Source: a virus (Duplodnaviria; Caudoviricetes). From it: a stretch of DNA of 64,000 nucleotides. Both the position numbers and the translations under genes were made by a program. Below the pieces are notes generated by a model. It made no database searches, was not told the DNA's origin, and saw only the letters and a list, made by a program, of their open reading frames with translations. Positions 1,236 through 46,742 of the stretch are shown piece after piece. The stretch is taken from positions 4,440 to 68,439 of the IMG/VR virus record IMGVR_UViG_3300033066_002238. The stretch is one strand, 5' to 3'. Position 1 is the stretch's first letter. The number at the start of each line of letters is the position of its first letter.

Positions 1236-1271
1236 TTTACACATTCGTTCATTGCTTGCTATATAGCGAGC
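1236..1271 (+). promoter_or_regulatory. Sigma70-like promoter with palindromic operator; leaderless start
   Basis: TTTACA-N18-TATATA; near-palindrome GCTTGCTATATAGCGAGC (1254-1271) directly before ATG 1272. Confidence 0.6.
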
Positions 1272-1775
1272 ATGCCCGGCCCCACCACACAGCCTGCGGA
1301 TGAAGAGAAGCAGGTGGCCCGCCGCTTCGATGTGCACGTGCGTGCGCTGCGCGCCGAGGCGCAGGAGCCGGTGTCGGCCGAGCGGGCGCGGTGGCTCGCG
1401 GATCGCGCCTTCGCTGCCGCCGAGCAGCTCCTGCTGGTCCTGCCCTCCCTGGAGCGCGGGGCGGTCGGGGGCCAGGCCGCTGCGCAGGTGCTGGCGGTGC
1501 TGCAGCACCTGTCCGCCGAGGAGGCAGAGGCGCGGGTGGAGCGCCGCGCGCACATCCTGCACGCCCACGGCTACGCGCAGGAGGCGCTGCACAAGGCGCT
1601 CTCGGCGCGGCGCTGGGCGCACACCGAGCAGGTGCAGGGGCGGCGCTTTGCGATCTGGGACGTGCAGGACACGCTCATCCGCTGCGCCTTCTCCGTGCGG
1701 GAGCTCGCGCACGTGGTGTCGATCCTGCCCCTGTGCCAGCTGGTCTTAACCACTTTCGAGGAGCAGCCCCGATGA
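1272..1775 (+). CDS. Hypothetical protein
   Basis: GC3-rich ORF after promoter; ATGA-coupled to next gene. Confidence 0.7.
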   Translation: MPGPTTQPADEEKQVARRFDVHVRALRAEAQEPVSAERARWLADRAFAAAEQLLLVLPSLERGAVGGQAAAQVLAVLQHLSAEEAEARVERRAHILHAHGYAQEALHKALSARRWAHTEQVQGRRFAIWDVQDTLIRCAFSVRELAHVVSILPLCQLVLTTFEEQPR

Positions 1776-2293
1776 TCCTGCATGCCCCGGATGACGTGCC
1801 ACAGGCCTTCCGCCTCTACCTCGCTCGCGCGCTGTGCGACAAGACGCGCCCCTTGCACGGCTTTGGCACAACGCAGATCTCGGGCGCGGCCTCGCTCGCG
1901 ACGCTGCTCGGGTGCCGTGTGGCCCACGTGCTGCGCAGCTTCAACTATTACCACTGCCCCTTCTCGATGCATCGCGCCCTGGAGCACTTCAACCGCCCCG
2001 CGCGCCAACTCGGCGCCCACACCTGGCCCATGCTGGGCCTGGCGCGGCTGTCGATCCAGGGGCCATGGCTCGACATCGAGGGCGGGGACCTGGAGCATCG
2101 GCACTGGGTAGCGCTCGCCTTTGTCGATGGTATCGATATGGTCTACGACATCAACAAGGAGGAGGGGGGAGGCTGGGACACACGGGCGGAGTGGGAGACA
2201 ACCACGATGCGGCGGCTCCTCGGAGAGGACGCCGACCACGAAGGCGCCACGGGCTGGCGCTTCTTCAAGACGCTGGAGATCATTGATCCATGA
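1772..2293 (+). CDS. Papain/C39-like fold protein, catalytic Cys replaced by Ser (paralogue of next gene)
   Basis: QISGAASLA versus ASCGPAALA in the neighbour; shared WPxLGL..GPW, HWVxLAFVDG..VYD(I/V)N, GGWxTR..WE, GATGW. Confidence 0.65.
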   Translation: MILHAPDDVPQAFRLYLARALCDKTRPLHGFGTTQISGAASLATLLGCRVAHVLRSFNYYHCPFSMHRALEHFNRPARQLGAHTWPMLGLARLSIQGPWLDIEGGDLEHRHWVALAFVDGIDMVYDINKEEGGGWDTRAEWETTTMRRLLGEDADHEGATGWRFFKTLEIIDP

Positions 2294-2862
2294 GGGATTT
2301 ATACACACCGACCGATGTCAACGAAGCCGCTGCGCGCTTCAACGCCAGCTGCGGCCCCGCCGCGCTCGCCGCGGTGCAACAAAAGACCGTGTGCGACATC
2401 ATGAGAGCCTTCCCGGGGTGGCGCGGCTACTGCAACCCGAGCACGATGAAGCACGCGATCGGCCTTGTCGCCGGGCGTGACTCCTTCGACGAGAAGCCGG
2501 GGACCTTCTGGCCGCTCCTCGGCCTTGGCTTTGTGCAGTTCTGCGGCCCCTGGGAGCAGGTGAGCGTGGCCGCGTCCTACCGGCGCACGCACTGGGTGGG
2601 CCTGGCCTTCGTGGATGGCCAGTTCTACGTCTATGACGTGAACGCGGTGACGGTGGACAAGAGCGCAGCCGAGAAGATGATCGGCCAGCCGTTCACGCTC
2701 GCGAACGTCGAGAAGGTGATGGCCGCGACGCTCATCCAGGGTGGCTGGGCGACGCGCGATCAGTGGGAGAAAGACACGCTGCCGCAGCTCCTGCGCACCA
2801 CCAAGGGCGCCACCGGGTGGTACATGCGCCAGGTGCTGCAGGTGAAGAGGATCGCACCATGA
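2290..2862 (+). CDS. Papain/C39-like cysteine peptidase-fold protein
   Basis: SCGPAALAA (Cys), THWV (His), VYDVN (Asp/Asn) in papain-like order. Confidence 0.65.
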   Translation: MRDLYTPTDVNEAAARFNASCGPAALAAVQQKTVCDIMRAFPGWRGYCNPSTMKHAIGLVAGRDSFDEKPGTFWPLLGLGFVQFCGPWEQVSVAASYRRTHWVGLAFVDGQFYVYDVNAVTVDKSAAEKMIGQPFTLANVEKVMAATLIQGGWATRDQWEKDTLPQLLRTTKGATGWYMRQVLQVKRIAP

Positions 2863-4637
2863 GTCACCGCCCGCCGATCCTGCGGCTGCTGGCCGAGGAG
2901 CTGATCGTCGACAACTTCGCCGGGGGTGGCGGTGCGTCCACCGGGATCCGCTTCGCGACCGGGCGCGATCCTGACATCGCCATCAACCACGATGAGGAAG
3001 CCCTGGCGATGTACCGGGCCAACCACCCCGGCACGCAGACGCTGTGCGAGGACGTGTTTGATGCGGTGCCGCGCGAGATGACGGGCGGGCGCAAGGTGGG
3101 CCTTGGCTGGTTCTCCCCCGACTGCACCTTCTTCTCCAACGCCCGGGGCGGCAAGCCCTGGCGCGACAAGAACCGCGCCCGGCGCCGCCGGGGTCTCGCC
3201 GGGGTGGTCTTGAAGTGGGCGGCGCAGGTGAAGCCGCGGGTGATCTTCGTCGAGAACGTGCCCGAGTTCAAGAAGTGGGGGCCGCTCATCAAGAACGAGA
3301 AGGGCGAGTGGATGCCCGACCCGGCGCGCGCGGGCCAGTCGTTTCGGCGCTGGTGCTCTCGCCTCAAGAACCTCGGCTACGTGGTGGAGCTGCGCGAGCT
3401 CAAGGCCTGCGACTATGGCGCGCCCACGTCGAGAAAGAGGGTGTTCATCATCGCGAGGTGCGATGGCCTGCCGATCGTGTGGCCAAAGCCGACGCACGGG
3501 CCAGGGCGGGCGCAGCAGTGGCGCACCGCGGCCGAGTGCATCGACTGGCGCCTGCCGTGCCCGTCGATCTTCGGCAGGAAGAAGCCGCTCGCGGCAGCGA
3601 CCCTGCGGCGCATCGCCAGGGGCATTCAGCGCTACGTGCTGGAGGCGGAGCGGCCCTTCATCGTGCCCCTGACACACCAGGGCAGCGATGAGCGGGTCTA
3701 CTCGGTGGATGAGCCGCTGCGCACGGTGACCGGCGCGCAGCGCGGAGAACAGGCGCTGGTGGCCCCCGTGCTGGCGCGCATCGGGCAGACGGGGGGGAAC
3801 GGATCCTACTCGAACGATGTGGGGGATCCGCTGACGACCGTCACCACCAAGGCAGAGCACCTGCTCGTGGCGCCGCTGCTGTCCCCGGTGAAGACGTGGG
3901 GCGGGGGCGGCAACGAGGCATCCCCCGCTGATCAGCCGCTGCGCACGGTGACGACATCGAAACGCGGGGAGCACGCGCTCATCATCCCGACTCTCATCCA
4001 GACCGGCTATGGGGAGCGCGACGGCCAGGCGCCGCGGGTGCCAGGGCTCGACAAGCCCCTTGGCACGGTGGTGGCCGATGGCCAGAAGCACGCGCTGGTG
4101 ACGGCCTTCCTGGCGCAGCACTTCGGTGGTGGCAAGAACGGCGTGCAGACCCCGGGCCTGCAGATGACGCTGCCGCTTGGAACGGTGACCGCGACCGATC
4201 ACCACGCGCTGGTGACAAGCAGCCTGGTGAAGCTCAAGGGCACGTGCAAGGACGGGCAATCTGTCACCGAGCCGCTTGGCACCGTGCAGGCGCAAGGGCG
4301 GCATTATGCCGAGGTGAGGGCCTTCTTGATGGCCTACTACACCGCGGACCAGGACGCGCAGCTCGGCCTGCCCCTGCCCACCGCGACCACCAAGCACCGC
4401 TTCGCGATCGTGACGGTCGAGGGGGTCGATTACGCGATCGTTGACATCGGCATGAGGATGCTGGAGCCGCGGGAGCTCTACAACGCACAGGGCTTCCCGC
4501 GCGAGTACGTGATCGACCCGATCCACAAGGGCAAGCGCTTCACCAAGACCGCGCAGGTGGCGAAGTGCGGCAACAGCGTGCCGCCCCCGGTCGCGGCGGC
4601 GCTGGCCAGGGCGCAGTTCGCTGAGGACGCGGCCTGA
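2859..4637 (+). CDS. DNA cytosine-C5 methyltransferase with repeated PLxTV-type TRD units
   Basis: VDNFAGGGGAS (motif I), SPDC (IV), ENVPEF (VI), RKR (VIII), C-terminal MRMLEPRELYNAQGFP and GNSVPPP. Confidence 0.93.
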   Translation: MSHRPPILRLLAEELIVDNFAGGGGASTGIRFATGRDPDIAINHDEEALAMYRANHPGTQTLCEDVFDAVPREMTGGRKVGLGWFSPDCTFFSNARGGKPWRDKNRARRRRGLAGVVLKWAAQVKPRVIFVENVPEFKKWGPLIKNEKGEWMPDPARAGQSFRRWCSRLKNLGYVVELRELKACDYGAPTSRKRVFIIARCDGLPIVWPKPTHGPGRAQQWRTAAECIDWRLPCPSIFGRKKPLAAATLRRIARGIQRYVLEAERPFIVPLTHQGSDERVYSVDEPLRTVTGAQRGEQALVAPVLARIGQTGGNGSYSNDVGDPLTTVTTKAEHLLVAPLLSPVKTWGGGGNEASPADQPLRTVTTSKRGEHALIIPTLIQTGYGERDGQAPRVPGLDKPLGTVVADGQKHALVTAFLAQHFGGGKNGVQTPGLQMTLPLGTVTATDHHALVTSSLVKLKGTCKDGQSVTEPLGTVQAQGRHYAEVRAFLMAYYTADQDAQLGLPLPTATTKHRFAIVTVEGVDYAIVDIGMRMLEPRELYNAQGFPREYVIDPIHKGKRFTKTAQVAKCGNSVPPPVAAALARAQFAEDAA

Positions 4638-4906: not shown

Positions 4907-5393
4907 CCTGCTTGGCGCCGGCGCCGCCACCGCGCCCCAGAACAACCGCCCCGACCGCGCGGACCTGGCCGACCCGCTGAGCCGCGGGGACGCCCGCGCC
5001 GCCGCGCCGCGCCGCACCGATGCGCGGCCCCTGCCCAAGGTGGAGTGGCCGAGCTGGGCCAGCGCCTGGCTCGCCGCGCCCGATGCCGCCTGCTACCTGC
5101 CCGCTGCGGAGGAGCCCACCCCGGCCGCGCAGGGTGCCCGGGGGCGCTTCCCGCTCGGGGGCTTGGTCCGGGCCACGGTGCGCCTGGCGGTGCCGCGGGC
5201 GGGGACGCTCGGCGTCGTGGTGGGCCACACCGCTTTGGGCGAGGTGTGCGTGCGCCAGGCGCCCGGGAGCCTGCTGGCGATGCCGGTGCCCGCTGCGCAG
5301 CTGATGCTGGAGCAGACCCCGGCGCCGCCCCCTCCCGAGGCTGTGAACCCGGTGCCGAACGAGGACGAGTACGACGATGAGGAGCTGCTATGA
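4899..5393 (+). CDS. Hypothetical protein
   Basis: Overlap-coupled ORF, acidic tail. Confidence 0.6.
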
Positions 5394-5836
5394 AGCGACG
5401 TGAGGCGGCGACCGACCGCCAGCAAGAGGTGCTGGACTTCATCAACAGCTACGCCACGGCGCACGGCTACCCGCCGACGCTGCGCGAGATCGGCAAGGGC
5501 CTCGGCATCCAGTCGACCAACGGGGTGACCGATCACCTGAAGGCGCTGGAGAAGAAGGGCTACGTGCAGCGCACGAAGCTGCACTCGCGCGGCATCGTCC
5601 TTGTGCAGGAGCAGCCCGTCAGGGCGTGCGGCGCGCCCGGCGCACCGCCACCGCCCGGGGCCGCGGTGGAAGAGGCGGTGCAGGAGACAGCGCGCCTGCG
5701 CCAGCAGCTCATGGCCGAGCTCGCGCGCCTGGAGGGCCTTGGCTCCGAGATCGTCGAGAAGATAGAGCTGCACGAGAAGGGCCACGGAGCAAAGGCGCGT
5801 ACCTCGCTCACGTTCCTGCGCCGGGTGCTGGCATGA
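5390..5836 (+). CDS. LexA-type winged-helix DNA-binding domain protein lacking the S24 peptidase domain
   Basis: [48 protein letters not shown], then coiled-coil tail. Confidence 0.85.
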
Positions 5837-6890: not shown

Positions 6891-7214
6891 ATGGCAGAAG
6901 GCTCGCCGCCGTCCTCCAAGAGCCCGGTGCGGCTCATCGTGATGTCACGCGCGCTCGCCGGGGTGACACAGTTCTCGGGGCTGGAGCACCACGATGGCGG
7001 ATGGCAGGGAGTGCTATCAATCTCCGTCGCTGGTGTGGTGCTGGGCCTGAAGGTGCAGATCGAGGAGAGGCGCGATGAGAGAAAAGCCGCAGACGCAAAA
7101 GCGCGAGGATGGATCTACATCGTCGCTGGCTCCCCCGAGGAAGCCGCTCGCAAGATCGAGCTCGCCCACCACGAGATCGACCGCTACCTCGCCGCCCACA
7201 TCAGGACCCACTGA
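6891..7214 (+). CDS. Hypothetical protein
   Basis: GC3-biased ORF between nuclease and Dam. Confidence 0.55.
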   Translation: MAEGSPPSSKSPVRLIVMSRALAGVTQFSGLEHHDGGWQGVLSISVAGVVLGLKVQIEERRDERKAADAKARGWIYIVAGSPEEAARKIELAHHEIDRYLAAHIRTH

Positions 7215-8010
7215 GGAGGCAGGCCCCTTCCTCAAGTGGGCGGGCGGGAAGCGGCGCCTCGTGCCGGTGCTGCTATCGCACCTGCCGCGCGCGTGGAAGG
7301 CCTACCATGAGCCGTGCCTGGGAGGCGGGGCGCTCTTCTTCGCGCTGCATGGCCGCTACGAGGTGGCCTACCTGTCCGACGTGAACAGCGACCTTCTGAG
7401 CGCCTACCTCGCCGTGCGCGACCGCCCCGAGCATCTCCTGCAGGAGCTCGCGGGGATCCCAGTGACGCCGGAGGCCTTCGAGAAGATGCGGCGCGTGGAC
7501 GCGGACAGGCTGAATCACCTGGCGCGCGCGGCGCGCACGCTCTACCTCGGGCGGTGCTGCTTCAACGGCCTGTGGCGCACGAACGCCGCGGGGCGCTTCA
7601 ACGCGCCGTGGGGCAAGTACAAGGCGCCGCTCGCGCCGGTGCCGCGCCTGGTTCGCGCCGCGTCCCCGGCCCTCCAGCGCACCATCTTGCGGGCGCAAGA
7701 CTTCGAGGCCTCGCTGCGCCTCGCTGGGCCGGGGGATCTGGCCTACCTCGATCCGCCCTACGACGGCACCTTCGCCGCCTACACCAAGGGCAAGTTCACG
7801 CAAGAGGATCAGCGCCGGCTCGCCACCGCCGCCCGCGCCGCCGCCGCGCGCGGGGTGCTGGTGATGGTCTCAAACTCCGCCACCCCCCTCATCCGCACGC
7901 TCTACGCGGGCTGGCGCTTCGTGCGCGTCACAGCCCCCCGGTCAATCAGCTGCAAGAGCAGCACCCGCACGCAGGAGGAGCCCGAGCTGCTCCTGCTCTC
8001 CTGGAGGTAA
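7075..8010 (+). CDS. dam: Dam-family DNA adenine methyltransferase (start uncertain)
   Basis: PFLKWAGGK, EPCLGGGALFF, SDVN, CFNGLWRTNAAGRFNAPWG, YLDPPY. Confidence 0.88.
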   Translation: MREKPQTQKREDGSTSSLAPPRKPLARSSSPTTRSTATSPPTSGPTEEAGPFLKWAGGKRRLVPVLLSHLPRAWKAYHEPCLGGGALFFALHGRYEVAYLSDVNSDLLSAYLAVRDRPEHLLQELAGIPVTPEAFEKMRRVDADRLNHLARAARTLYLGRCCFNGLWRTNAAGRFNAPWGKYKAPLAPVPRLVRAASPALQRTILRAQDFEASLRLAGPGDLAYLDPPYDGTFAAYTKGKFTQEDQRRLATAARAAAARGVLVMVSNSATPLIRTLYAGWRFVRVTAPRSISCKSSTRTQEEPELLLLSWR

Positions 8011-8015
8011 CCCCG

Positions 8016-8063
8016 ATGTCATCGAAGAAGACCCTGGCCCCCCGCCCCTGGACCCCGCGCAAG
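8016..8063 (+). pseudogene. 5' stub (MSSKKTLAPRPWTPRK) of a phage gene interrupted by the thyX segment
   Basis: ATG with GGAGG RBS after dam; same frame as the start-less ATPase fragment at 9759. Confidence 0.45.
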
Positions 8064-8152
8064 GCGGTCTCGGTGGCGTCGAAGGCGCGCTTGTAGAACT
8101 CGCCAGCGGCGCTGGCGTCATTGACGGTCAGGTAGGGGACGATCTGCGGCAT
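8062..8152 (-). pseudogene. Truncated VOC/glyoxalase (PhnB-like) gene fragment
   Basis: RBS GAGGAG plus MPQIVPYLTVNDASAAGEFYKRAFDATETA matches the VOC N-terminus; similarity stops after about 30 aa. Confidence 0.7.
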
Positions 8153-8230
8153 GGTCAGCTCCTCTGGTTTGCTGGGTGCAAGCGCCTTTTTATGCCGCAC
8201 CAAAACAAATGTCCAGAGAAAATCCGCTGG

Positions 8231-9196
8231 CTAGAGCGCCAGCTTGGCGCGCAGCTCCGCCTGCTCGCGCTTGCTCAGGCCCAGCGCCTCCAGGTCGGGC
8301 TGCTCACCGCGGATCATGCTGCGCACCGCGGCCAGCTCCTGGCGCGAGAGCTCCGCCGCGTGCAGGCGGTAGTCGCAGAAGGCCTCCCAGGCGGCGGGGA
8401 CCCAGTCGGCCACCAGGCCGCCGATGGCCTCGGCATAGACGCGGATCTCGCGCTGGGCGTGGCTGTGCAGCCGCAGCGCCAGAAAATGCAGCAGGTTGTG
8501 CAGGTCGATCTTCCAGTACCACTGCGTGTAGTAGTTCAGCGTCAGGTTGATGCGCGCCAGCTCGCGCGCCAGCCCGTCGCGCTGCGGGTCGATGATCTGC
8601 CCGCCCTCGTCTTCGTTCAGCAGCTCCTGGTAGTGCGCGTAGCAGCGCTGCGCGTCATCGCGCAGCAGTTCCAGCACCGCCTGCGCCTGCTCCGGCGCCA
8701 GCGCCTGCGCCTCCCGCCCCTGCCGGTTGCTCTGCGACTGCGCCGCCAGGTCCTCCGCCCGCGGCAAATAAAACTCCCGATCCAGCACCGAATATCTCCC
8801 TGAATACTCATTCACGCTCGCCGTCCGGTGCCTGATCCACTGGCGGGCGATGAAGATGGGGAGCTTGACGTGGAGCTTTAGCTCGCACATCTCCAGGGGG
8901 GTGGTGTGGCGGTGGCGCATCAGGTAGCGGATCAGGCCGCGGTCATCGCGCAGCTTGGTGGTGCCGCGGCCGTAGGACACGCGCGCCGCCTGCACGATGG
9001 CGCCGTCATCGCCCATGTAGTCGACCACGCGCACGAAGCCGTGATCAAGCACCGGGGTGGCCTCAAAGAGGCGCGCCTCCAGCGCGGGCACGGTGGGGCG
9101 CCGCGTCGGCTGCTGCGCGGCGCGCGCCTCGTCGATGGCCTGCTGCTCTTCGGGGCGGAGGGGGTTGCCCGGGAGGGTGGTTCCAGAGTCCGACAT
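8231..9196 (-). CDS. thyX: Flavin-dependent thymidylate synthase ThyX
   Basis: [25 protein letters not shown], ThyX motif [33 protein letters not shown]. Confidence 0.97.
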
Positions 9197-9355
9197 CTCG
9201 GTCGTTGTAGCACAGCCGCGCGCCAACCACCAACTCCACCGCGGCGGCCCTACAGCGCGCCCGCGCCGCGAGGGTGCGCCACCGCCACAGACCCCGCCGC
9301 GAGGGCCCCACCGTGACCGCGCTTTCGCGCTAAAATGATCAAAGGCAGGTCATCC

Positions 9356-9760
9356 ATGCTCAGTCCGGGACAGATCGTCGGCAACTACCGCATCACCCGC
9401 CCGCTCGGCCAGGGCGGCATGGGCGCGGTGTACGCGGCAGAGCACCAGGTCATCGGGCGCCGCGCCGCGATCAAGGTCCTGCACCAGTCGCTCTCGTCGG
9501 ACCCGGCGCTGGCCAGCCGCTTCCTGAACGAGGCCCGCGCCGTCAACCTGGTGGAGCACCCGGGCCTGGTGGAGGTCTACGAGTACGGCGTGCTGCCCGA
9601 GGGCGGCGCCTACATCGTCATGGAGTACCTGGAGGGCGAGACGCTGCACGCCGCCCGCCGCCGCCACGGCCGCCTGACCCAGGAGGCGGCCGCGATCGGG
9701 CTGCAGATCGCCGAGGCGCTGGCCGCCGCCCACGCCCGCGACATCATCCACCGCGACCTA
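9356..9760 (+). pseudogene. Truncated PknB-like Ser/Thr kinase (ends at HRDL; ORF runs on in junk to 9997)
   Basis: LGQGGMGAVY, AAIKVL, RFLNEARA, YIVMEYLEG, IIHRDL then no KPEN, DFG or APE. Confidence 0.85.
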
Positions 9761-10376
9761 TGGCCCGCTGCGCCAGCTCCTGGACGGCAGCTTCAAGAAC
9801 CGGGGCAGCGCCCGCAACGCCCTGCAGATCGTCTGCGGGCGCACGCTCCTGCCCTTCCATGGCGGGACCAGGCCCGCGCGAGAGCGAGGCGGGATCTATA
9901 TCCACATCGGCAATGGCGGCAATGGGAAGACGGCATTCCTCAGCGCCCTGTGCCAAGCCGTGCAGGGCCTGAAGCTGCCGCCCGAAGCCCTGAATGACAT
10001 CGTGGCGCCAGCGGCAGGCCCGCGCACCCTGCGGGGCAAGCAGCAGGCCTGGGTGGCGAGCGCGAAGCCGCGCATGATCTTCGTGGACTGCGCCGACGAG
10101 ATCAAACTCAGCGACGCGGAGACAAAGGCGCTCGCCACCGGCTACAACGTCCACCTCGCGGTGAATCGCATGCCGCAGAAGATGCCCACAGCCATCGCGC
10201 AGTTCGTCCCCGGCCAGGAGCCGGACCTGCGGCGCATCCAGATCATCGAGTGGCCCCGCTTCGTGCCGGCGGAGAACCGGAACAAGGAACTCAGCGAGCG
10301 CCTGGCCGATGACCCGGACCTCTTCCGCTGGCTCGCCGAGGGGCTGTGCAAGGACGTGGAGATGTGGGGCGCATGA
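9759..10376 (+). pseudogene. D5/P4-primase-type SF3 ATPase fragment lacking its own start codon
   Basis: Frame open from 9678 with no ATG/GTG before 9960; encodes LRQLLDGSF..ALQIVCG, Walker A IGNGGNGKT, RRIQIIEW..RNKELSERL. Confidence 0.65.
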
Positions 10377-13928: not shown

Positions 13929-14948
13929 ATGAGCGCGAAGACCGCGATGCGCATGGGGAACGATGGCGAGGCTGCGGCCCGCAGCGACGTGTACCACCTG
14001 AATCCGAACTGGATCACGGTGATCACCGATCGGAGCCACGTGCTCTATGACGAGCGCGTGCACCTGCCGCTCGATGAGAAGATGATCGCCTCGATCGCGC
14101 GGCAGGGGGTTCTCAAGCCCGTGCTGGTGCGCCTGAACGGCGACATCAAGGAACTCGTCGCGGGGCGCCGCCGCGTGCTCCATGCGCTGGCGTTGTGGAA
14201 CCGCCAGGCGGAGGAGGGCGTTCCCGTAGATGAGCGCATCAAGGTGCCGTGCATGCAGCGGCGCATGACGGACGCAGAAGCCGTCGAGGCGATGATTGAC
14301 GAGAACGAGGATGCGCTCCCCGACTCGCTCGCCAACCGCGCACAGAAGGCGAACCGCCTCTTGCAGCTGACGGGCGACTGGCCCTTCGTGCAGGCGAAGT
14401 TCCCGGGCTATGACCTGAAGGCGCTGCTCGCGGTGATCGAGCTCGCCAAGCCCGTGCAGGACGCGATCGACGCCGAGGAGCTGCCCCTGTCAGCGGCGCC
14501 CGACATGGCCTGCATCCGGCGCGAGGATCAGCCCGCGCGCCTGCAGGAGCTGATCACCAAGGGCCTGAACCGGGGCCAGGGCGTGAAGAAGGCGCTCAAG
14601 CAGATCAAGGCGGGCAAGACGGTCGCCGAGATCAGCGCGTTCAAGGGCCTCCTGCCCTCGCGCATGCGGGGCCTGGCCCACGCGCTCGACAGCGATCGGG
14701 TGGTGCAGCAGGACCTGTCGGCCTGCATCGCTCGCGCGGGCGCTCCTGTGGTGCTGGCGCAGCTCCTGCGCTACGCCGCGGGCGATGAGACGGCGATCGC
14801 GGCCTTCCCGGAGCTGATCACGGTGATCGGCGAGGTGGATGAGGCGCTCAACAAGAAGGGCGTGATCACCGGGAGCGCGAAGGCGAAGAAGACAAAGGCG
14901 CAGCGGGAGGCCGCGCCGCCCCCGAAGGCGAAGAAGACGAAGAAGTAA
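13929..14948 (+). CDS. ParB N-terminal-domain protein
   Basis: LYDER..MIASIARQGVLKPVLVR..ELVAGRRR motif; Lys-rich tail. Confidence 0.8.
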   Translation: MSAKTAMRMGNDGEAAARSDVYHLNPNWITVITDRSHVLYDERVHLPLDEKMIASIARQGVLKPVLVRLNGDIKELVAGRRRVLHALALWNRQAEEGVPVDERIKVPCMQRRMTDAEAVEAMIDENEDALPDSLANRAQKANRLLQLTGDWPFVQAKFPGYDLKALLAVIELAKPVQDAIDAEELPLSAAPDMACIRREDQPARLQELITKGLNRGQGVKKALKQIKAGKTVAEISAFKGLLPSRMRGLAHALDSDRVVQQDLSACIARAGAPVVLAQLLRYAAGDETAIAAFPELITVIGEVDEALNKKGVITGSAKAKKTKAQREAAPPPKAKKTKK

Positions 14949-23320: not shown

Positions 23321-24227
23321 GGGGCGCCTCCTCCCCGGACACCCACCCAGGGCCGCCCGGGAGCTGGCACAGCGCCATCAGGCCGCACAGGCTGGAGACG
23401 GCGTAGCCGATCTCGCGCCGCAGCTGCGGGCGCTGGCACTGCTCGATCTGGCGCGCCTCCCCGGGCCAGGCGCCCTCCGCCGGGGTGGGCTCGTCGTCAT
23501 CCCACCAGCTCCGCCAGGTGACGCCCTCCTCGTAGGCGAAGAGCAGTCGGCCATCGGGCCGGAAGCACGCCGACAGGCCAGCGGTGATCGGCGGCTGGGC
23601 CGCGGCGGGGGGCGCTGCGACGGGCGGCGCGGTGATCGGTGGCGCTGGCGCGGGCAGCGGCGCAGGAGCAGGCGGTGCTGGCGCGGCTGGAGGCGCGGGA
23701 GCAGGCGGCGGCGCGCACGCGGGCGCGATCGGCGGCTGCTGGCCCGCGGTGAGCGCCTCCGCGGCCAGGCACAGACCCTCCGCGGTGCTCCTCAGCCATG
23801 GGCTGGGGGCGACGCCGAGCGCGGGCAGCGCCCGCAGGATGTCCGACACCAGGCTCACCGATCCGGCGGTGGCCAGGAGCGCCTGGCGCTCGCGATCGGG
23901 GGCCTTGGCGGCATCGACCACCGCGCCCGCGTCCAGGATCGCTGCGCGGCCGAGGTTCACAGCGGCCCGCAGCTTCTCCCAGGGCTCCATGCGCTTCTGC
24001 CACTCGGCCAGCGCCTTGTCGCTGCCGCCGGGGCCGCTTCGCGCGAGCTGGAGCAGCTGTGGGTCTTCACGGGCCGCGCGGGCCGCGCGCGAGTACAGCG
24101 GCGCGGTGGTCTTGTCGACCATGTTGATCACCGCGGCGCTGGTGATGATGACGCGCCGGGTGGCCGTAGCGCAGCCCCCCAGCAAGATCAGGCACAGGAG
24201 AAGGAGCGATCGTCTGGTGTGTCCCAT
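23313..24227 (-). CDS. Lipoprotein in lysis cassette (spanin candidate)
   Basis: Lipobox LLGGC after hydrophobic signal; Pro/Ala linker. Confidence 0.65.
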   Translation of the reverse strand: MGHTRRSLLLLCLILLGGCATATRRVIITSAAVINMVDKTTAPLYSRAARAAREDPQLLQLARSGPGGSDKALAEWQKRMEPWEKLRAAVNLGRAAILDAGAVVDAAKAPDRERQALLATAGSVSLVSDILRALPALGVAPSPWLRSTAEGLCLAAEALTAGQQPPIAPACAPPPAPAPPAAPAPPAPAPLPAPAPPITAPPVAAPPAAAQPPITAGLSACFRPDGRLLFAYEEGVTWRSWWDDDEPTPAEGAWPGEARQIEQCQRPQLRREIGYAVSSLCGLMALCQLPGGPGWVSGEEAPRG

Positions 24228-46481: not shown

Positions 46482-46742
46482 CTAGTCGTCCTCCTCATCG
46501 TCGAGTTCAGGGATCGAGAGGCCCTGCGGCGGAGTCGCGGGGCGCCCGGCGCGGCCCACATCGCTGCGCAGGAGCGTGGTGCGCGCGGGCGGCATCGGCG
46601 CGCTCGGGATGCTGCTGATGTCCTTGCGGGGCCTGTCCTGCAGGATGCCGCCCGTCTCGGGGGTGGGCTCCTGCATGAGGTGCGACTGCAGCGCGGTCGC
46701 GGTGGTGCGGGTCGGTTCGTTCTTGTCGCGGTGGTGGGCCAT
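46482..46742 (-). CDS. Hypothetical disordered protein
   Basis: GGAG RBS, acidic tail. Confidence 0.5.
   Translation of the reverse strand: MAHHRDKNEPTRTTATALQSHLMQEPTPETGGILQDRPRKDISSIPSAPMPPARTTLLRSDVGRAGRPATPPQGLSIPELDDEEDD

Follow-up and report, generated by a model that had tools for sequence, protein, structure and literature searches.

Probable capture of a 1,695-nt bacterial thyX segment into an ATPase gene of a tailed phage

Introduction

Metabolic genes of phages such as thyX are thought to be derived from their hosts, their acquisition usually being deduced from trees, with the scars of the event long gone. The locus described here raises the question of whether one such acquisition can be seen with its scars still in place. 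An intact thyX lies between the beginnings of two other genes, both of them cut off, and these lie in turn between two pieces of what reads as a single phage gene. The questions to be answered are therefore whether the piece carrying thyX is cellular, where exactly it begins and ends, what it was joined to, and how the joins might have been made.

The phage and the insertion site

The window (the whole stretch of DNA analysed, 64,000 nt) comprises bases 4440-68439 of a linear IMG/VR virus record of 68,439 bp, for which CheckV gives a completeness estimate of 89%. PHROG profiles identify the genes of a tailed phage, namely tail sheath, head maturation protease, portal, major head protein and large terminase, and elsewhere in the record a DNA helicase, several DNA methyltransferases and a ParB-like protein. 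The overall GC content of the window is 69%. Among GenBank phages, the best match to the large terminase (TerL) has no more than 31% identity. No match to the tyrosine integrase profile PF00589 was found in the 68-kb record (89% complete), and neither Ku nor ThyA was found in it, thyX being the sole thymidylate synthase gene there.

The insertion site falls within a series of early genes on the plus strand, in which a LexA-type DNA-binding protein is followed by a D12 N6-adenine methyltransferase (Table 1). The stop codon of the latter is separated by 5 nt from the start of a short stub, and it is after this stub that the foreign DNA begins. An initial annotation, made from the letters of the DNA, had described the stub, a VOC gene start, thyX, a kinase running as far as HRDL and a start-less P-loop fragment, and all of these are present as it stated.

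Table 1. Features at the insertion site (positions in the window).
Feature	Position	Strand	Basis or remark
Dam-type / D12-class N6-adenine DNA methyltransferase	7075..8010	+	PF02086, E 5.5e-41; upstream phage gene
5' stub of SF3-like (predicted) ATPase gene, 16 codons (MSSKKTLAPRPWTPRK) + 1 nt	8016..8064	+	direct reading; in frame with 9760-10376 after excision
Segment read as captured from a cell, 1,695 nt (3x565)	8065..9759	.	match to donor-type contigs stops at both ends
VOC/glyoxalase gene start, cut off, first 29 codons + 1 nt	8065..8152	-	register as in the 134-aa Glyoxalase (PF00903) gene of L199 and L115
Inverted repeat, left arm GGTCTCGGTGG	8066..8076	+	1 nt inside junction (C, then GGTCTCGGTGG)
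Terminator-like hairpin + T-run, overlapping thyX stop	8226..8243	-	consensus scan; putative
thyX (FAD-dependent thymidylate synthase), intact, 321 aa	8231..9196	-	PF02511, E 5e-55
thyX-kinase divergent intergenic region, complete, 159 nt	9197..9355	.	alignment with L115 and L198-L201; presumed native promoters
Hanks-type Ser/Thr kinase N-lobe	9356..9759; alternative start 9335	+	PF00069 profile positions 1-123/263
Inverted repeat, right arm GGTCGCGGTGG (kinase HRD codons)	9748..9758	-	1 nt inside junction (plus strand CCACCGCGACC, then T)
3' part of SF3-like (predicted) ATPase gene, 204 codons + last 2 nt of join-spanning codon + stop	9760..10376	+	family matches P0003-P0011

Content of the inserted segment

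The segment 8065-9759 holds only three things, these being the N-terminal part of a kinase, thyX and the N-terminal part of a VOC protein. The thyX product matches PF02511 with 186.7 bits (the cut-off being 24.8) over profile positions 1-191 of 191, and its RHRxxS motif is intact. It is worth adding that thyX is oriented against the surrounding phage genes. The VOC-like N-terminus, which starts at 8152 on the minus strand, reads MPQIVPYLTVNDASAAGEFYKRAFDATET. The kinase reading frame ends at HRD followed by the CT of a Leu codon, that is, inside the HRDL motif; a complete catalytic domain (HRDLKxxN, DFG, APE) is not present, and what is left is a fragment and not a kinase.

Donor-type loci in metagenomes

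The closest thyX protein in a large protein collection is P0132, with 96% amino acid identity. The members of its 90% cluster that are found on Logan and ENA contigs were used as donor-type loci and aligned to the window. The nearest of them, L200 (Logan, SRR13208903, 1,648 nt), aligns with window 9759..8065 with 40 substitutions, a 49-nt intergenic indel (a strain-level difference, at 9240-9288) and a 1-nt indel, which amounts to 97.6% identity at aligned bases over the whole 1,695 nt. BLAST identities to the segment, with gaps counted, are 94.5% for L199 and L201 and 92.8% for L115, which comes from an activated-sludge assembly. Within the 64-kb window the donor-type contigs match 9759..8065 only, apart from a 47-nt GC-rich stretch of thyX matching at 23638-23684, which was set aside as a likely chance match.

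L115, L199, L200 and L201 have a common gene order, with a divergent kinase, thyX, and a VOC gene running in the direction of thyX. In L199 the VOC gene is whole (134 aa, PF00903); next come a TPR protein and the Flp-pilus protein RcpC/CpaB. In L117, a relative at 81-84% nucleotide identity, the divergent kinase has a full catalytic domain and is at least 438 aa long. The genes are thus whole in the contigs and stumps in the phage, and the direction of transfer is therefore from cell to phage. The gene content of the donor-type contigs, which are at most 4.8 kb long and the nearest of which differs by 2.4%, suggests that they are cellular; the exact donor strain is unsampled.

The initial annotation had predicted that a kinase-thyX-VOC synteny should exist outside the phage. 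This is borne out by the metagenome contigs L115 and L199-L201, whose flanking genes run past the phage breakpoints. The synteny is absent from the 80 GTDB loci with the nearest thyX (from more distant Myxococcota genomes), from 26 viral thyX loci, from three kinase-plus-HEAT homologue loci, and from 80 loci of JGI metagenomes retrieved with the kinase fragment, in which identity is at most 62%. Those thyX relatives that have a name (70-76% identity) come from MAGs of Myxococcales or Polyangia, and the best homologues of the kinase fragment (55-64%) are Myxococcales-type kinases. Homologues of thyX and the kinase, at about 55-77% identity, therefore point to Myxococcota as the probable source, and the origin proposed initially stands as probable rather than proven.

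The two junctions

Comparison with the donor-type contigs places the breakpoints between 8064 and 8065 and between 9759 and 9760. On the left side, the window agrees with L115, L199, L200 and L201 from 8065 rightwards, and is unrelated to them from 8064 leftwards: the contigs go on from GAGACCG into AGCGCCACG (VOC ...TETERHV), whereas the window goes into the phage stub. On the right side, the window agrees with L200 and L117 through T9759, beyond which L117 reads CAAGCCCGAC (HRDLKPDN) and the window reads ATGGCCCGCTG. From these limits of the match, the piece is 8065-9759, or 1,695 nt. The length given in the initial annotation is thereby upheld, with the junctions moved 1 nt to the right.

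The breakpoints take no account of the gene boundaries of the donor, since the kinase is cut between HRD and L and the VOC gene after codon 29. There is no donor-target homology at either join, the sequences differing from the first base past each junction; the sole run shared by donor and phage is a 5-nt GCCCG, 3 nt beyond the right junction. No target duplication was found at the flanks of the insert. When DNA patterns of the junctions and insert ends were searched for in IMG/VR, one had no match and the other gave two chance matches of 19-22 nt.

The interrupted phage gene

The stub is preceded by a ribosome binding site (GGAGG at 8002-8006, 9 nt upstream of the ATG at 8016), and its frame reads MSSKKTLAPRPWTPRK and then enters foreign sequence. 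On the other side of the insert, direct reading of the P-loop fragment gives the Walker A motif GNGGNGKT and FVDCADE. As it stands, this frame is closed by a stop at about 9675 and offers no ATG, GTG or TTG short of 9960, because of which the Walker A part is untranslatable by ordinary initiation. The translatable remainder is a 138-aa tail lacking Walker A, and the call made by the IMG gene caller is this same tail (P0001). Excision of 8065-9759 produces a stop-free ORF of 221 aa.

The 205-aa fragment served as query in an exhaustive phmmer search, the target being 1.84 billion representatives of clusters (about 15 billion proteins in all). The search gave 11 matches, all of them at most 47% identical with the exception of the window's own 138-aa ORF, and defined a small family of P-loop proteins (P0003-P0011) whose members are mostly 185-243 aa long and have in common HVGxGxNGKT ... 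DPDFLIWLAEGL. An HMM of this family, from which the window was left out, matches residues 19-212 of the joined ORF with E 3e-30. This match and the in-frame ORF confirm the proposal that stub and P-loop fragment are one disrupted phage gene of about 221 aa. The conserved core of the family starts two residues past the junction. P0007, P0008 and P0010 (210-243 aa) begin one residue before the first aligned residue of the fragment, which therefore lacks little more than its start. The contigs on which the family members are found are only 0.8-3 kb long, and their gene context is uninformative.

The family has no match in Pfam at E <= 0.01. In PHROG there is only a marginal match to phrog_6088 ('DNA primase', E 0.009, over 40 residues), and PDB sequences, searched with a profile of the family, gave generic P-loop matches only, at E > 0.09. 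An AlphaFold model of the P-loop protein was obtained with pLDDT 79 and pTM 0.80. The best PDB matches found with Foldseek are the SF3 helicase domains of poxvirus D5/E5, African swine fever virus (ASFV) PrimPol and the SaPI5 primase-helicase, with E about 5e-6 to 7e-5 and query TM-scores of 0.52-0.63. The interrupted protein is thus predicted to be a D5-like SF3 ATPase, by fold rather than by membership of a sequence family. The earlier label 'D5/P4-type' is accordingly backed by the fold match and not by sequence profiles, there being no Pfam and a weak PHROG match. The protein resembles the D5/E5-type helicases in predicted fold and in its Walker A motif, and differs from them in standing alone at about 221 aa, without a primase or D5_N domain, and in having 10-15% identity to the structures.

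An uninterrupted form of the gene in related phages, which the initial annotation had in view, was not found in IMG/VR (in scans with the fragment, the family alignment and the neighbouring Dam gene), in GenBank phages (by tblastn), or among the 1.84 billion cluster representatives. Although decapitated, the ATPase frame remains open, and all of the family-invariant residues are kept.

Origin of the insert

What capture from a host would lead one to look for was found here, namely a collinear and near-identical cellular locus, truncated donor genes, and junctions without homology. Our preferred reading, to which we give a probability of roughly 0.85, is that a contiguous 1,695-nt stretch of bacterial chromosome was captured into the phage ATPase gene by two illegitimate joins. 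The lack of junction homology, target duplication, integrase or Ku in what was searched fits illegitimate recombination. The donor would probably be an uncultured Myxococcota relative, and the piece would have come to lie in a small D5-like SF3 ATPase gene, past codon 16 and ahead of the conserved core. The event may be placed in an infected or lysogenic cell, where break-and-join repair or template switching could have made the joins, and the ATPase would have been dispensable to the phage. Phage sequence could have gone missing along with the insertion. Among the points that weigh against this reading are the failure of the phage and protein searches to find an uninterrupted relative, the absence of the synteny from the more distant Myxococcota genomes, the 1-in-3 chance of an in-frame join taken alone, and a terminal inverted repeat matching at 10 of 11 positions, which hints at breakpoints that were not random.

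The inverted repeat could be taken further, to a capture directed by sequence, in which an 11-nt inverted motif GGTCKCGGTGG set both breakpoints. A nuclease or recombinase would cut beside the motif, or else template switching would be guided by pairing of the two arms (a panhandle). Each arm is set 1 nt in from its junction, and in a simulation of random breakpoints in real high-GC loci such ends arose with P = 6e-4; in addition, the motif is found 5 times in the window, where 0.32 would be expected, with 3 of these copies within the insert. We nevertheless consider this unlikely. The pattern was defined post hoc, and the right arm consists of common kinase HRD codons, kinase-rich high-GC loci having on average 2.8 such motifs per 64 kb. 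The piece holds a third copy (9308-9318) that went unused, the phage target CGCAAGG^ATGGCC has no motif, and no transposase or target duplication was found. If motif-guided capture were true, it could repeatedly lift the thyX unit, or other units, from chromosomes, and L200, with both its ends at nearly these points, would be another sign of it.

These ends of L200 also bear on whether the phage acquired the segment second-hand, the truncated kinase-thyX-VOC unit having already been on another phage or mobile element rather than coming directly from a chromosome. One end of L200, its start, coincides exactly with the equivalent of 9759, and the other lies 3 nt beyond that of 8065; such ends would be expected at forks of an assembly graph if a second form of DNA in that sample shares just this unit. 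Against this, no viral contig has the unit or a junction, L200 is 100% identical to the cellular-type L199 across 1,524 nt, and its 3-nt overshoot follows the host form; low coverage may simply explain where it ends. We regard second-hand acquisition as very improbable. Least credible of all is a chimera of metagenome assembly, in which host reads were mis-threaded into a phage contig. The contig is indeed derived from a metagenome, and GC content does not tell host from phage (0.696 vs 0.69-0.71), but there is phage on both sides, together forming one in-frame ORF typical of its family; there is no sequence shared by host and phage at either junction to mislead an assembler; and the piece is at least 2.4% different from every sampled host contig. 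A transposon or insertion sequence was rejected, as neither a transposase nor a duplication of the flanks was found and the only inverted repeat is the 10/11 one, which is of ordinary coding sequence. Specialised transduction was rejected as well, as the piece is internal to a gene and the 68-kb record (89% complete) has no PF00589 integrase match.

Comparison with known captures

Direct capture by illegitimate joins is in keeping with the accepted model of phage mosaicism, which is one of illegitimate recombination that is not directed by sequence (PMC9262239). A gain of host DNA through illegitimate recombination has been reported for mycobacteriophage Giles (Morris et al. 2008, J Bacteriol 190:2172, cited as reference 102 in PMC9262239). 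As in Giles, in so far as the citing review describes it, host DNA with a high nucleotide match lies within a phage, the joins crossing gene boundaries with no recombination site. What sets the present locus apart is that both junctions, the amputated neighbours, a complete and useful gene and the split target can be seen together, and that its donor locus is known from metagenome contigs only.

The captured gene resembles the thyX and thyA auxiliary metabolic genes carried by phages, matching the thymidylate synthase phrog_85 with E 2e-59, and relatives of this thyX are found on 26 IMG/VR contigs. It differs from these other viral copies in having only 44-71% protein identity to them and no flanks in common with them, in being nearest to cellular-type contigs, and in still having its host flanks and host intergenic region. 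There is also a likeness to specialised transduction (lambda gal/bio, through aberrant excision of a prophage), in that host DNA enters the phage genome illegitimately and phage sequence is lost. In contrast to lambda gal/bio, the piece is inside an early-region gene and not at an attachment-site end, and no integrase was found.

The locus adds a new, unusually complete case to a known process, the capture of host DNA, and is not a new kind. Its scars are all kept: both junctions to the base, the amputated neighbours, the host intergenic region and terminator, the split gene, and a near-identical donor-type locus. It thus offers a rare clear snapshot of the pickup of a host metabolic gene by a virus, and a concrete substrate for testing how the joins form, how a captured gene is expressed from host signals in a phage, and what a phage can lose.

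Age of the capture, constraint and expression

Lineage-specific substitutions amount to 20 in the window, 16 in L200 and 20 in L115, which together form a star. The changes specific to the window number 15 in the 966 nt of thyX, against 2 in the 382 nt that the two dead fragments (kinase and VOC) make up. With so few changes in the dead fragments the capture looks recent. A branch spent in the phage would change these fragments at least as much as the silent sites of thyX, so that most of the divergence would predate the capture, and the divergence on the window branch appears mostly to reflect the unsampled donor strain. The codon differences between thyX and L200 comprise 20 synonymous and 5 non-synonymous, which argues for thyX being under constraint.

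The full 159-nt intergenic region upstream of thyX came along with the gene, as did the terminator-like hairpin at its end. From the intact divergent region it would appear that the native promoter of thyX was kept, and it is plausible that host signals drive the gene; a consensus scan found no sigma-70 consensus in the region (9197-9355). On this basis thyX may be expressed with the help of the upstream region and terminator that it brought along, and may supply thymidylate to the phage.

A weak terminator-like hairpin is also found on the plus strand, at 8167-8190. This hairpin could stop read-through from the phage. As a matter of speculation, the retained upstream region of the kinase could then drive the plus-strand genes downstream.

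Ends of the captured piece

The cellular DNA that splits the phage SF3-like ATPase gene carries an inverted repeat of GGTCNCGGTGG (10 of 11 positions matching), with its arms lying exactly 1 nt inside both ends. Under random breakpoints, the probability of such a terminal inverted repeat is 6e-4, and the window holds five copies of the motif where 0.32 would be expected. Where L200, a metagenome contig of this thyX lineage, overlaps the cellular-type contig L199, the two are 100% identical. The first base of L200 corresponds exactly to window 9759 and its last lies 3 nt beyond the counterpart of 8065, a pattern that would result had the assembly graph forked at both capture breakpoints.

Features at the insertion and elsewhere
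Feature	Sequence	Positions	Strand	Remark
Terminator-like hairpin with T-run	window	8167-8190	plus	between VOC start and thyX stop
GGTCNCGGTGG motif, terminal arms	window	8066-8076, 9748-9758
GGTCNCGGTGG motif, other copies	window	9308-9318, 4378-4388, 46695-46705
Logan contig	L200	1-1648		SRR13208903
LexA-type DNA-binding protein		5390-5836
ParB-like protein		13929-14948

Variation within the thyX lineage

The thyX of contig L198 belongs to this lineage, with 94% nucleotide identity to that of L199. Instead of the VOC gene, L198 has an AAA_15/AAA_21 ATPase of 680 aa, encoded on the opposite strand (1250-3292), and the site downstream of thyX therefore differs between strains. Between thyX and the kinase, the phage copy has 49 nt (window 9240-9288) that are missing from L199, L200 and L201; since L115 and L198 carry differing indels at the matching position, this is a strain-level indel hotspot. 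At codon 123, the thyX of L115 (394-1368) encodes RNR in place of the RHR of the ThyX motif that is seen in the window and the other contigs; the cause is a sequencing error or else an unusual allele.

Genes and signals in the phage

Profiles for ThyA, Ku and tyrosine integrase had no match in the whole 68-kb record; a LexA-type DNA-binding protein and a ParB-like protein are encoded in it. The terminator-like hairpin could exert a polar effect on phage genes that lie downstream of the insert. At the right junction, the kinase N-lobe frame (window 9335-9997) crosses into the start-less ATPase fragment, out of frame with it, and the resulting chimeric ORF of 220 aa could be taken by a gene caller for a real gene.
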